Source: Escherichia coli O157:H7
GTDB lineage: Bacteria; Pseudomonadota; Gammaproteobacteria; Enterobacterales; Enterobacteriaceae
Assembly: GCF_013167455.1 (NCBI RefSeq)
Contig: NZ_CP038328.1
DNA length: 64,000 nucleotides
Reading direction: 5' to 3' (one strand)
Part shown: positions 25,885 through 30,704 of the stretch, in pieces
Position numbering within the stretch: the stretch's first letter is position 1
Layout: each line of letters starts with the position of its first letter
Made by a program: the position numbers and the translations under genes
Notes under the pieces: model-generated
Told to the model about the DNA's origin: nothing
Seen by the model: only the letters and a program-made list of their open reading frames with translations
Database searches by the model: none

Positions 25885-27453
25885 TTAGCGTGCCGGCTGA
25901 GTAGTCGTGGAAGACTGCTCAAAGTGATAGCGACCGGTTTTCAGGCTGCTTGGGCCGAGGCGTGCAAACTTGAACATTAAGAACAATTCTGCCACCAGGA
26001 ACAGGGTATACAGGCCGCAAATCAGCACCATTGAGAAGATGAGATCGCCTGCGGTCAGTGACGAGTTCGCCACAGCTGTCGGCAGCACTTCACCGATAGC
26101 CCACGGTTGGCGGCCATATTCAGCCACGAACCAGCCCGCTTCTACAGCAATCCACGGCAGCGGAATACCGTACAGCGCGGCGCGCAGGAGCCATTTTTTC
26201 TCGCCAATGCGGTTGCGGATGACACTCCAGAAAGAGAGCGCGATGATTGCCAGCAGCAGGAAGCCACACGCCACCATGATACGGAACGCGAAGTACAGCG
26301 GCGCTACACGCGGAATGGAGTCTTTGGTTGCCTGTTGAATCTGCGCTTCAGTCGCATCAGCCACGTTTGGCGTATAGCGTTTCAGCAGCAGACCGTAACC
26401 GAGGTCCTTCTTCATGCTATTGAACTGGTCACGAACCGCCTGGTCGGTAGAACCAGAACGCAGTTGTTCGAGCAGAGAGTACGCCTTCATCCCGTTACGA
26501 ATGCGTTCTTCATGCTGCACCATCAGTTCTTTCAGGCCGATAACTGGAGTATCCACGGAACGCGTTGCAATTATGCCCAGCGCGTAAGGGATCTGGATCG
26601 CAAATTTGTTCGTCTCCTCTTCCTGATCAGGAATGCCGAACAGAGTAAAGGCAGCAGGCGCAGGTTGCGTTTCCCACTCAGCTTCAATAGCAGCCAGTTT
26701 GGTTTTCTGCACGTCGCCCATTTCGTAGCCGGATTCATCACCCAGAACAATAACAGACAGAACGGCAGCCATACCGAAGCTGGCAGCGATAGCAAAGGAG
26801 CGTTTAGCGAAGGCGAAGTCACGACCTTTCAGCATATACCATGCGCTGATACCGAGGATGAACATCGCGCCAGTCACATAACCAGACGCTACAGTGTGAA
26901 CGAATTTCACCTGAGCAACCGGGTTAAGCACCAGCTCGGAGAAGCTCACCATCTCCATACGCATAGTTTCAAAGTTGAAATCGGACGCGATTGGGTTTTG
27001 CATCCAGCCGTTCGCAACCAGAATCCACAGTGCGGACAGGTTTGAACCGAGCGCCACCAGCCAGGTGACACACATATGCTGAACTTTACCCAGACGATCC
27101 CAACCGAAGAAGAACAGACCTACAAAGGTGGATTCGAGGAAGAAGGCCATCAGACCTTCGATTGCCAGCGGCGCACCGAAGATATCCCCTACATAGTGGG
27201 AATAGTAAGACCAGTTAGTCCCGAACTGGAACTCCATGGTCAGACCGGTAGCCACACCCAGAGCGAAGTTGATACCAAACAACTTGCCCCAGAACTTGGT
27301 CATATCTTTATAAATCTGTTTGCCGGAAAGGACGTAGACCGTTTCCATAATGGCCAGCAGGAACGCCATACCGAGCGTCAGTGGCACAAAAAGGAAGTGG
27401 TACATCGCGGTCAAGGCAAACTGTAAGCGCGACAGTTCGACTATATCTAACAT
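25885..27453 (-). CDS. cydA: cytochrome bd-I ubiquinol oxidase subunit I
   Basis: ORF track 25885..27456; second ATG gives 522 aa [28 protein letters not shown]. Confidence 0.9.
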
Positions 27454-27790
27454 CATGACTCCTTGCTCATCGCATGAAGACTCCGAGAGTGAACCCCGTT
27501 AGAAAGGGTCACACGCATGCCCCAATACAAAATTATTTGCTCGCCTCTATCGTTGCCATTTCATCAAAAGAGGAAAAGACAATGATAAAAAAGTTACAAA
27601 TATGTTAATGAATAAACCAAATTGATCCCGTAATTATATTACGCCGCAAAATCCTTACAATAAACAGGTTTTTATTGAGCAAATTTGCATTTTTCGACAG
27701 TGATCAATTTATAGCGAAATTGTCACGATCTCACCAATTTGATCTACGACAATTTATCGTGTTTTGCAGATTTTTTTCAAGAATTAAAAA

Positions 27791-27804
27791 TTGATTTATA
27801 TCAA
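27791..27804. promoter_or_regulatory. FNR-type site in the cydAB upstream regulatory region
   Basis: TTGATTTATATCAA is a perfect TTGAT-N4-ATCAA match, about 340 bp upstream of the cydA start in a long AT-rich region. Confidence 0.55.
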
Positions 27805-28258
27805 AACCAACCAAATATGTTAATTATGTATAAACCATAGATCATTGGTGATTTTATTGTTAATTTATTGTGAAATATTTATGCAACACAATTATTACAA
27901 TGAAAAGGTATAGATAAAAAACCAGTATTTTATTTAACAGAACCGCCTTATCCACTTTTTATAATACCAATTGATTAGAGTAGCCAATTTGTTGCTATTT
28001 TACATAACATATTTTTATCAAAGTTAATTGATTGTTGCCTTTATGAGCACCGACCGTAAGCCCGTTATGTTATTGTTTCATTAGTAATAATCACTTAAAT
28101 GTATCGATGAAACAGGTATGACTTACCGGGAGTGATTGTTTCTGAGTGAACAGAGGCCACTTTCGCCTGATAAATGAAAAATGAGCGATTTTTGCAAGTT
28201 AGTTTTTCTATAGCCGAGTACGCTCAGCGCCTCGCTTGATTACAATGAGGTTGCTGCT

Positions 28259-29203
28259 ATGAGTCCTGATAATATCGGTTCGGCTGTCAATCGCTTCTCA
28301 GGTTGGCCATCTAATGATTCTCTAAAAACAGATAAAGAATCAATGACATCACCCGTGACTGTGCAGGTAATAAAGATGATTGCCGCCATCCTTGACCCAC
28401 ATCGGATAGTCGTTGGAATTGATACACTTTATACAACGCAGCGCGAAACATTTACCTCAGAGAGTCAACAGCTCATTGAATCAGCATTGCAAACACTTCA
28501 TGTGATGAATTTAAATAATCTGGAAACAAATCGCGATGAAGAAAGTCACTATCTGGCTTTTGAATATAACGTTGACACCTCTGACAGAATAACCGTTTCT
28601 GCTTATAATGAAAAAAAACCTGGCTGCTATGGCCAATGTCTTGTAATACAGGATGACGAAACAGACTTATTTAACCTGATAAAAATTAAAATTTTCGAAG
28701 CCAGGCATAATTATGTCGCTCAATTGATGAGCGATCCGGAATTTATGTTCAAATTCAGTTATAGCGCTCAACAAAATAGATTAGAACCTCATCTTCTGGT
28801 TCCCGCTTATTTCCCTCTAAAAACAAACGAACCGGTTACGCAAGAGGATGTACTGTTACTTTATCGTTTCTTTAAAATGAATGATGATTTTAATAAATTA
28901 ACATCAGATGAATACATGAGTATCCTGACACCTCTGATGAAGTGTGAGCGTAGCGTCCACGACAACAACAGGTATGTGACGGGCAAAGATACCCTTCTTC
29001 TGGACTATCCTCCTTCTGGTAACCAGATACATTTCCATGTTTTCCCTGACGAATCAGCAACACTAGTCCTTTATTTTTCAAACAATGACATTGAATGTTT
29101 CGTCTTTGAAAGAGATATTCCGAGCCAGTATCGCTTTTTCAAAATGTTTACCAATCTGGCACTGGTTATAGATCAGTTAACCGAAGCCAATAAAATACTT
29201 TAA
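28259..29203 (+). CDS. hypothetical protein, 314 aa, no recognisable family (AT-rich gene)
   Basis: 945-nt ORF in markedly AT-rich DNA where chance ORFs of this length are unlikely; no motif recognised by eye; start could alternatively be the internal ATG near 28345. Confidence 0.6.
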   Translation: MSPDNIGSAVNRFSGWPSNDSLKTDKESMTSPVTVQVIKMIAAILDPHRIVVGIDTLYTTQRETFTSESQQLIESALQTLHVMNLNNLETNRDEESHYLAFEYNVDTSDRITVSAYNEKKPGCYGQCLVIQDDETDLFNLIKIKIFEARHNYVAQLMSDPEFMFKFSYSAQQNRLEPHLLVPAYFPLKTNEPVTQEDVLLLYRFFKMNDDFNKLTSDEYMSILTPLMKCERSVHDNNRYVTGKDTLLLDYPPSGNQIHFHVFPDESATLVLYFSNNDIECFVFERDIPSQYRFFKMFTNLALVIDQLTEANKIL

Positions 29204-29284
29204 TTTTCTATATATCCCCTATGGCAAATATTGCTAAACAATGCCTGGGGATTAATTTTTATTACTCACGGAAAGATTTAAATA

Positions 29285-29707
29285 ATGATACCATCTCAGA
29301 TCTCTTTCAATACCCTTCCAGTCAATGCAACATACGCTTCAGAGACAACAGTTGACACACAAAAATTCTCTGACATCCTCTACTCAGCGGGGTGTTCCCT
29401 AAAGGATATGGCTTATCTGAGCAGATGTCTGGCATCAATACACCCGACTCTCGCCAAAAACATTTATGAAACAGAAAATCTCAGCGATCAAAAATTACTA
29501 CATATTGATTGCCGTAGTACAAATGAAATCAAGATAAATATCTTTTTTGGTCAACAACGAGAAGGATTAATTGAAATTAATTCTGACACAGTCATTTTTT
29601 CGATATTGTCTTCATTAATTGACTCCGCCATTTCTAAATTTCAACACCAAATCCCCGTTAACGGTTCAGTTAATCGTGAACTATTGTATGAGGATTATAC
29701 TGATTAA
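29285..29707 (+). CDS. hypothetical protein, 140 aa, no recognisable family (AT-rich gene)
   Basis: 423-nt ORF 81 bp downstream of the 314-aa ORF, same strand and similar composition; no signal peptide or motif recognised. Confidence 0.55.
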   Translation: MIPSQISFNTLPVNATYASETTVDTQKFSDILYSAGCSLKDMAYLSRCLASIHPTLAKNIYETENLSDQKLLHIDCRSTNEIKINIFFGQQREGLIEINSDTVIFSILSSLIDSAISKFQHQIPVNGSVNRELLYEDYTD

Positions 29708-30254
29708 ATCCACCCTGTCGCGAAAAATGGCCTGCGTTATTGCCAGACGTAATAAAACCTTTGATTAACGTTACTCATACTGATAGCACCTTCATGTACC
29801 TCTCTTTTTTACGAAAAATTAAAAGAGCTAACTAAGGTCATAATTCGCATGAATCATTAACCATTTGTTATTTTCAACATTATTTTTACATTAAGCAGAG
29901 ATGAATTGCAGTGAAATTCGACTTAAATCTTATGAAATGCATTTACTCATGGCTAAAACCACGTCACAAAAATGCAAATTAGAAGTAGATCACAATTATC
30001 TCAATACATTAAATCAAGTTAATTTTAAAAATTTAACACTCATGACATTAGTTGACATAACACACTGAATTAACATGGAAATTTAAAAACACACTTCAAA
30101 CAATCATTTCCCGAAAGACATTTTGAAAATAGATCAATTGCAACATTACGGTCAGATAAAGACACTCCTGTGATATTAAACCTGTGCCGTTATGAACGGC
30201 CATAAATACGACGTGTGTAACTTATTTTACTCTCTGTCTTACAAAGGATTACCC

Positions 30255-30704
30255 ATGAAGAAAGCAACACTTGTGATTGGCGTTATTGGCGCGGACTGCC
30301 ATGCAGTAGGCAATAAAGTTCTGGACCGCGTTTTTAGCAACCACGACTTCAGAGTCATTAATCTGGGCGTAATGGTCAGCCAGGACGAATATATTGATGC
30401 TGCCATTGAAACTGGCGCTGACGCGATTGTCGTCTCCTCTATCTATGGGCATGGCGATATCGACTGTCTGGGCATGCGCGAACGCTGCATCGAGCGTGGA
30501 CTGGGGGACATCCTGCTCTATGTGGGCGGTAACCTGGTGGTCGGAAAACATGACTTCGCTGACGTGGAAACCAAATTCAAAGAGATGGGATTTGATCGCG
30601 TCTTTGCCCCAAGTCATGACTTAGAAGATGTTTGCCAGCTGATGGCCCACGATATCAACCAACGTCATGACGTTGATACTCGTATTCTTGAAGAGGCTAT
30701 CTGA
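30255..30704 (+). CDS. mamA: glutamate mutase (methylaspartate mutase) S subunit, B12-binding
   Basis: ORF track 30192..30704; ATG at 30255 gives 149 aa [22 protein letters not shown] with the cobalamin-binding DxHxxG motif (DCHAVG); closely resembles clostridial GlmS/MutS. Confidence 0.88.

Follow-up and report, generated by a model that had tools for sequence, protein, structure and literature searches.

The cydA upstream region and its adjoining orphan gene pair in an Escherichia coli O157-type chromosome

The interval between cydA and glmS

The region described here lies between cydA, which encodes subunit I of cytochrome bd-I, and a divergently oriented gene, orf314, in an E. coli O157-type chromosome. 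The window analyzed is a 64-kb stretch of this chromosome, and all window coordinates refer to those 64 kb. E. coli needs cytochrome bd-I to respire at low oxygen in the gut, and control of this oxidase by FNR, ArcA and H-NS is a textbook case built wholly on strain K-12. The K-12 cydAB promoter region and its FNR/ArcA/H-NS control were reportedly worked out by Cotter in 1997 and Govantes in 2000. Our analysis covered the anatomy of the locus, its homology limits, the conservation of sites, the distribution of alleles and genes, and selection on the open reading frames (ORFs). The genes that frame the interval are:

25885–27453, minus strand: cydA, cytochrome bd-I subunit I, 522 amino acids (ORF list; RefSeq annotation of an identical genome)
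28259–29203, plus strand, divergent from cydA: orf314, 314 codons (ORF list)
29285–29707, plus strand: orf140, 140 codons (ORF list)
30255–30704, plus strand: glmS, first gene of the glutamate-fermentation (methylaspartate) cluster (RefSeq annotation; Pfam B12-binding domain)

The order is thus cydA, spacer, orf314, orf140, glmS with the rest of the glutamate cluster, and then sucD/sdhX from about 41801. The longest cydA ORF extends to 27456, and positions 27300–30300 are 100% identical in strain 2017C-4109. A preliminary description of this DNA had placed an AT-rich region of about 800 bp upstream of cydA, directly followed by an AT-rich 314-amino-acid ORF on the opposite strand, so that cydAB control sequences and AT-rich ORFs stand back to back. 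The coordinates bear this out. The cydA/orf314 spacer occupies 27457–28258 (802 bp), with a guanine-plus-cytosine (GC) content of 33% overall and 26% at its centre in 300-bp windows, against about 52% in the flanks, while the GC content of orf314 is 0.36–0.41. The continuous tract of 26–41% GC from 27.5 to 30.2 kb is the most AT-rich part of the window. The longest glmS ORF begins at 30192 (170 amino acids); the RefSeq annotation and all homologues favour the start at 30255 (149 amino acids).

Homology to the K-12 upstream region, which might have run right up to orf314, stops at 27829, or -376 from the cydA ATG (BLAST with short words), short of 28258. A 21-mer from the cydA leader was scanned in one genome per bacterial species and gave 74 Enterobacteriaceae loci; this exact scan did not return E. 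fergusonii, E. marmotae or E. ruysiae. The interval between sucD and cydA takes four forms. It can be free of inserted genes, sucD then being the direct upstream neighbour (Pluralibacter, Kosakonia, Raoultella), or it can contain mngRAB (Enterobacter, Lelliottia, Kluyvera, Citrobacter sedlakii and K-12), the glutamate cluster, whose glmS starts about 1.2 kb from cydA (the Citrobacter freundii group, Klebsiella oxytoca and Salmonella arizonae), or Escherichia-specific variants. Comparison of these loci divides the spacer into three layers:

27457 to about 27835, minus strand: layer 1, a cydA control module common to Enterobacteriaceae (BLAST)
27836–28094, minus strand: layer 2, an Escherichia-specific far-upstream segment absent from K-12-type genomes (BLAST)
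28095–28258 (164 bp), plus strand: layer 3, the 5′ flank of the orphan module, set by the junction in E. whittamii and Escherichia sp. E1V33

The outer edge of layer 1 recurs at 27759–27835 by BLAST for Salmonella, Citrobacter, Klebsiella, Pluralibacter, Trabulsiella and K-12, whatever the upstream neighbour. The K-12 limit is therefore read as the natural edge of a cross-genus module, since it is independent of the upstream gene. An insertion scar of an island was considered for the K-12 homology end and rejected, because all other genera end there too. Layer 2 continues up to 28094–28099 in LF82 and E69 (B2-like), E. whittamii, E1V33, MOD1-EC7003 and E. albertii, and it is present in every Escherichia lineage examined except K-12-type E. 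coli. At the border of layer 3, identity to the E. coli variant L007 falls from 98.1% to 86.0% exactly at 28095. This drop, together with a synonymous divergence (dS) of 0.13 for orf314 versus 0.04 for cydA, points to alleles of the orphan module that separated deeply and long ago within E. coli.

Positions 27457–28258 are probably the complete ancestral Escherichia cydAB oxygen-control region, of which the last 164 bp would belong to the orphan pair.

FNR and ArcA sites and the length of the control region

The features predicted within the control region, in order away from cydA, are:

27457–27535, minus strand: ultra-conserved cydA leader with a hairpin and Shine-Dalgarno sequence, nearly invariant across 18 genera
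27591–27608 (-138 to -155 from the ATG), plus strand: proximal ArcA box, 20.5 bits by position weight matrix (PWM), at the position of the K-12 cydA3 site found by chromatin immunoprecipitation with sequencing (ChIP-seq)
27739–27752, minus strand: second FNR site TTGTCGTAGATCAA, a partial match that aligns with K-12 TTGTTCTCGATCAA at 770385
27751–27780, minus strand: P1-like promoter TTGAAA-18-TAAATT (consensus scan)
27791–27804, no strand assigned: perfect FNR palindrome TTGATTTATATCAA, the FNR site at -53.5 of P1 (K-12 alignment and conservation)
27817–27900 (-364 to -447), no strand assigned: middle cluster of ArcA boxes, 16.2, 14.5, 20.5 and 13.9 bits (PWM)
28004–28038 (-551 to -585), no strand assigned: distal cluster of ArcA boxes, 17.3 and 14.0 bits (PWM)

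The perfect FNR-type palindrome that the preliminary description had pointed out is present and is the only copy in the window: TTGATNNNNATCAA, or TTGAT-N4-ATCAA, matches once, at 27791–27804. By chance a mean of 0.08 matches is found per shuffle, and at least one match occurs in 8 of 100 shuffles. The palindrome aligns with K-12 TTGATATTTATCAA at 770333 (U00096.2). Under the K-12 cydA FNR peak, Myers et al. (2013) list TTGATATTTATCAA at 770333 and TTGTTCTCGATCAA at 770385, with a site position of -53.5. In the window the transcription start predicted by the consensus scan lies near 27744, exactly 53.5 bp from the centre of the palindrome. The two FNR boxes are spaced 52 bp apart, a spacing that would put the second site at about -1.5 of P1. 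The palindrome is kept in 16 of the 18 Enterobacteriaceae genera aligned, and both P1 hexamers and the second FNR box are conserved in the same alignment. Judged by the K-12 alignment, the matching distance to P1 and the conservation across 18 genera, the palindrome is the canonical FNR operator of the cydA promoter P1; it says nothing specific about the O157 strain. Besides the P1-like site, the consensus scan gave several weaker minus-strand promoter matches, and the total number of matches is not above that in shuffles.

The leader contains a hairpin on the minus strand at 27489–27512 (GUGACCC...GGGGUUCAC), in which RNAalifold finds four pairs with compensatory changes among 21 diverse sequences. 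A scan of 27300–30400 against Rfam gave no RNA family match at E≤1. A further motif, AAATTGATCAC(T/C)GTCGAAAA at 27694–27707 (-241 to -254), is almost invariant in all genera aligned and differs from both FNR motifs that are given for the K-12 ChIP peak.

ArcA boxes were scanned with a PWM built from 115 of the boxes published by Park et al. (2013), and the scan was repeated with the three cydA boxes left out. In the 802-bp spacer seven boxes reach 12 bits or more, compared with 0.44 in shuffles. This amounts to 8.7 boxes per kb; the orphan module, which is equally AT-rich, has 1.0 per kb, and elsewhere in the window the values are 0.04–0.15 per kb. The ChIP-seq sites reported upstream of K-12 cydA (Park 2013) lie at -125 to -155 (cydA3), -370 to -421 (cydA2) and -570 to -600, the last of these being the strongest K-12 site. 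The three clusters predicted in the window match the distances of these three sites by motif evidence, and the strongest K-12 site sits in DNA that is non-homologous to the window. Boxes near -393 to -421 are found in nearly all genera examined, and a distal box at -534 to -638 is found in most. Most genera show this three-part spacing even though their DNA cannot be aligned past about -380. The distal cluster of the window also lies within a block of about 100 bp that is identical in E. albertii and better conserved than orf314. From the distal cluster, the recurring spacing and the block identical in E. albertii, the functional cydA control region probably reaches about 28038, leaving 57 bp to the variable junction at 28094 and 221 bp to the start codon of orf314. 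The positions kept by three ArcA clusters across unalignable DNA give a concrete and testable definition of the length of the control region.

In K-12, H-NS represses cydAB and ArcA activates it mainly by displacing H-NS. By analogy, H-NS repression and its displacement by ArcA would apply to the window allele as well. Near-matches to the H-NS nucleation motif lie at 27751–27760 and 28098–28107; the motif count across the window is 9 versus 4.85 expected, which is not significant. A literature search gave no usable H-NS ChIP data for O157 and no expression or ChIP data for the locus in O157-type strains.

The K-12 promoter allele among Enterobacteriaceae

The comparison with other Escherichia makes K-12 the exception. 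Over the proximal 400 bp, the Escherichia alleles are 91–98% identical to one another, and the K-12 allele is 76–78% identical to each of them. Its identity to the Salmonella and Citrobacter alleles is 74–78%, so that it is as distant from the Escherichia alleles as from these genera. The other alleles track the relationships within the genus, with E. albertii at 94% and E. whittamii at 93%. A neighbour-joining tree places the K-12 allele outside the Escherichia clade. When the K-12 sequence (L001 8613–9458) is compared with window 27457–27835, the K-12 allele is 76–81% identical to the one shared by the other Escherichia lineages; over the proximal 380–400 bp, K-12 and the window are 77–81% identical. 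The coding sequences of cydA fit this poorly: the proteins are 100% identical in amino-acid sequence, and there are 14 synonymous differences (dS 0.038), one of which is within the first 690 nt. The divergent tract starts in the leader, somewhere between -77 and -130, and ends just beyond sdhX.

The alleles were surveyed in 5426 complete E. coli genomes. Identity to the K-12 allele is bimodal, with 3178 genomes at 99% or above, 2233 at 80–90% (about 81%) and almost none between. The K-12 arrangement, mngB with the K-12 spacer, occurs in 3173 of the 5426 genomes (58%), nearly all at 99% identity or above. The full O157-type arrangement occurs in 1134 (21%) and the B2-type arrangement in about 1120. 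The K-12-type cydA promoter accordingly presents as a horizontally replaced, or "switched", allele that appears to have arrived with mngRAB, and the O157/B2 allele is most likely the ancestral, genus-wide Escherichia form. Since its allele lies outside the Escherichia clade and the window allele is genus-wide, K-12 is, by these comparisons, a poor reference for the cydA promoter. The 42% of the surveyed genomes that keep the genus-wide allele include O157:H7 and B2 strains, and K-12 promoter maps should not be transferred to pathogens unchecked.

Switched intergenic regions and horizontal regulatory transfer have been described before (Oren 2014, as described in Thorpe 2018, PMC5890482). Like them, cydA has two deeply divergent upstream alleles within E. 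coli that misfit the gene and species relationships, the K-12 allele lying outside the clade at a cydA dS of 0.038. Unlike a typical switched region, the cydA switch appears to have come with the whole mngRAB operon, and the architecture of regulator sites was kept; for the latter reason, a regulatory change is not established. The window shares with the K-12 cydAB promoter (Myers 2013, Park 2013) the gene, the leader, the two FNR positions, a P1-like promoter and the three ArcA distances. It differs in being unalignable to K-12 beyond about -380 and in a stretch of leader, -76 to -130, that is unrelated. Relative to K-12, the window has stronger predicted ArcA boxes in the proximal and middle clusters, weaker ones in the distal cluster, and a weaker left half in the second FNR site. 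Upstream of cydA stands a divergent orphan gene in the window and the co-oriented mngB in K-12.

Myers et al. report an aerobic sigma-70 ChIP peak at K-12 770039 (U00096.2), at -642 from the cydA ATG. This peak lies in DNA exclusive to the K-12-type allele, and at an equal distance the O157-type allele has the orphan-module junction. In the B2-like E. coli E69 (L025), a TPR gene replaces the island and glmS remnants remain, matching window 30226–30284 and 30413–30465. Because these remnants persist, the B2 arrangement looks like a deletion derivative of one with the glutamate cluster.

The orphan pair and the reading of the locus

The pair of genes opposite cydA belongs to a module that can be delimited by the genomes that lack it:

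28095–29963 (1.87 kb), plus strand: orphan module, consisting of 5′ flank, orf314, orf140 and 3′ flank (junctions in E. whittamii and E1V33)
28178–28258, plus strand: conserved block immediately upstream of orf314, in which GAGG precedes the ATG by 8 nt; E. coli variants and E. albertii carry it in near-identical form

In E. whittamii and E1V33, the match to the window stops at 28094/28099 and resumes at 29964/29966, and a spacer of 440 bp with unrelated sequence fills the gap. Neither gene occurs in K-12 or B2 genomes or in any genus other than Escherichia. Searches with orf314 and orf140 gave nothing above noise in Pfam, NCBIfam, PADLOC, PHROG and PDB profiles. Among 5.8 billion protein clusters and 1.84 billion representatives there is no credible relative of orf314 beyond Escherichia. 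The exhaustive HMMER search of the 1.84 billion representatives returned only fragments of orf314 and one low-complexity repeat protein at E=1.5e-4, which was judged spurious. Named matches of orf140 are only in E. coli, Shigella and E. albertii, and the remaining matches are 49–98% identical. For the enterohaemorrhagic E. coli locus tags ECs0765–0767 and Z0897–0899, the literature search found no relevant paper. Hand inspection of 28178–28258 revealed no convincing -35/-10 or sigma-54 match.

Between E. coli and an E. albertii-like contig, at 63% amino-acid identity, the frame of orf314 is uninterrupted for all its 314 codons. The ratio of nonsynonymous to synonymous substitution (dN/dS) is 0.40–0.46 for orf314 (p≤0.005) and 0.31 for orf140; all values are significantly below 1 (p 3e-8 to 0.006), the mark of weak purifying selection. 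From the long open frame and these ratios, both are probably real genes. With a dS about three times that of cydA, orf314 is fast-evolving. The E. albertii type strain carries a frameshift in it and MOD1-EC7003 has it in fragments, which argues that the orphans are dispensable.

The preliminary description had called these genes foreign. Their AT-richness and their absence from K-12 and other genera agree with that label; the want of a mobility signature and their presence at the same place in E. albertii do not. Their GC content is about 36% against about 52%, and the reference strain lacks them, as would fit an island; no mobility signature and no donor lineage or homologues outside the host genus were found. 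They do show the narrow-clade restriction and the coding constraint of orphan genes. In E. albertii, which has no glutamate cluster, orf314 adjoins cydA with the same cydA-side junction, and in Citrobacter, K. oxytoca, S. arizonae, E. whittamii and E1V33 the glutamate cluster stands beside cydA without the orphans. An assignment of the orphans to the glutamate-fermentation island was rejected on this distribution. A mobile origin of the module was likewise rejected, since it has no phage match, no genuine plasmid match (the plasmid matches are mislabelled chromosomes) and no convincing flanking repeat; mobility genes are also absent. A weak 24-nt inverted repeat, 79% complementary, at 28118–28141/30098–30121 roughly brackets the module and is probably due to chance, because its right arm falls in DNA upstream of glm that other genera also conserve. 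Like orphan genes known to be silenced in AT-rich DNA, orf314 and orf140 are AT-rich, genus-restricted, domain-less, fast-evolving and sporadically pseudogenised; in lacking a mobility signature and keeping a fixed position across Escherichia species, they depart from typical xenogeneic islands. The best description, on distribution and junctions, is that of an old, genus-restricted pair lodged amid an ancestral bidirectional cydA–glmS spacer rather than a recent insertion, and as such it neatly exemplifies genes confined to one genus that lie within a bidirectional regulatory spacer.

The reading of 27457–28258 as the ancestral control region can be put as a mechanism, most likely the one mapped in K-12. 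FNR would act on the perfect palindrome (-53.5) and the weaker site (about -1.5) of P1 and give anaerobic repression. Phosphorylated ArcA on the three clusters, at about -145, -365 to -447 and -551 to -585, would relieve H-NS silencing under microaerobic conditions. The 1.87-kb orphan module would sit within what is a single 1.2-kb divergent cydA–glmS spacer in Citrobacter, Klebsiella oxytoca and Salmonella arizonae, and the K-12-type cydA promoter would have been replaced horizontally, having been brought in with mngRAB. For the window allele we infer the binding and function of FNR, ArcA and H-NS, as well as any control shared with orf314, from sequence.

Several points weigh against this reading. 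The ArcA and FNR calls on the window allele are motif matches with positional conservation, and of the five promoters reported in K-12 (P1–P5) only P1 could be placed on it. In anaerobic K-12, no H-NS ChIP signal lies over the two cydA FNR sites, and the cydA FNR peak is present both in the wild type and in an hns stpA mutant (Myers 2013); from the missing signal, H-NS occupancy would be condition-dependent. The allele tree rests on 400 bp. A donor of the K-12 allele was not found, the best spacer match being 82% and the best relatives of MngB reaching at most 84% amino-acid identity. For orf314, no plus-strand match to the sigma-70 consensus of at least 9/12 was found.

Other explanations can be offered. 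A recent foreign AT-rich module may have been inserted against a K-12-like cydAB region, with spreading H-NS filaments coupling the two. The unbroken low-GC tract, the H-NS repression known for K-12 cydAB, the absence of the two orphans from K-12 and the two near-matches to the nucleation motif are all in its favour. We nevertheless consider it unlikely, for the nucleation motif is not significantly enriched, E. albertii has orf314 at the same position with the same junction, and the module lacks repeats, mobility genes and phage or plasmid relatives. In addition, the limit of K-12 homology coincides with that of all genera, and it is K-12 itself that appears to hold the replaced allele. Alternatively, the whole of 27457–30254 could be one oversized AT-rich divergent cydA–glmS spacer in which orf314 and orf140 are chance ORFs. 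Such an account would explain why no homologue outside Escherichia and no domain is found, why the AlphaFold2 model of orf314, made from a four-sequence alignment, has a predicted local distance difference test score (pLDDT) of 45 and is unusable, why no orf314 promoter was found, and why the frame is broken in two Escherichia genomes and evolves at three times the dS of cydA. It becomes quite doubtful when the coding constraint is considered: the orf314 frame stays open at 63% identity, a frame of this length would be open with a chance of about 1e-10 by our arithmetic (about 7% of random codons being stops at this composition), the dN/dS values of both genes are significantly below 1, and intact 314-amino-acid copies number in the thousands.

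The polarity of the exchange could also be reversed, with the K-12-type promoter being original in E. coli and the O157/B2 type acquired by introgression from other species of the genus. Escherichia species are known to recombine with one another, and the K-12 type is the majority type. This would leave the K-12 allele as the native one while it is no closer to other Escherichia alleles than to those of Salmonella and Citrobacter, whereas the other alleles track the genus. The near-uniformity of the K-12-type copies suggests a single, fairly recent origin, and the linked mngB has its best relatives in other genera; we therefore regard reversal as very improbable. To return to the ancestral control region, the locus is a known regulatory region beside two orphan genes, and nothing in it overturns current understanding. 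The main by-products of the analysis are the apparent import of the K-12 promoter, the positional stability of the ArcA clusters and the precise delimitation of the orphan module.

The preliminary description had also raised the idea that silencing across the AT-rich DNA couples the two transcription units. Shared H-NS silencing with ArcA-dependent relief of both cydAB and orf314 is mechanistically plausible, because no break interrupts the AT-rich tract and orf314 begins not far from the distal ArcA cluster; we hold it as a tentative idea that is probably not correct. A joint reading, in which about 40% of E. coli run bd-I from the ancestral region (about 80% identical to that of K-12) and the O157-type distal ArcA cluster also de-represses orf314 and orf140, is similarly a long way from likely. 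If true, orf314 and orf140 would be Escherichia-specific genes induced at low oxygen in the O157-type subset, and O157-type lineages would have a different oxygen-response curve for the bd oxidase.

On the far side of the orphan module lies the glutamate-fermentation (methylaspartate) cluster of O157:H7 described by Kronen and Berg (2015, PMC4682846). It adjoins the module and fills the same sucD–cydA interval; it differs in GC content (about 52% versus about 36%), and the orphans are separable from it. An ArcA box of 18.7 bits is found at 29874–29891, about 380 bp upstream of glmS, within a patch (29849–29890) common to E. whittamii. In S. arizonae and Citrobacter, too, ArcA boxes are found about as far from glmS. 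With this box and its similar placement in other genera, the glutamate-fermentation operon may be under ArcA control.

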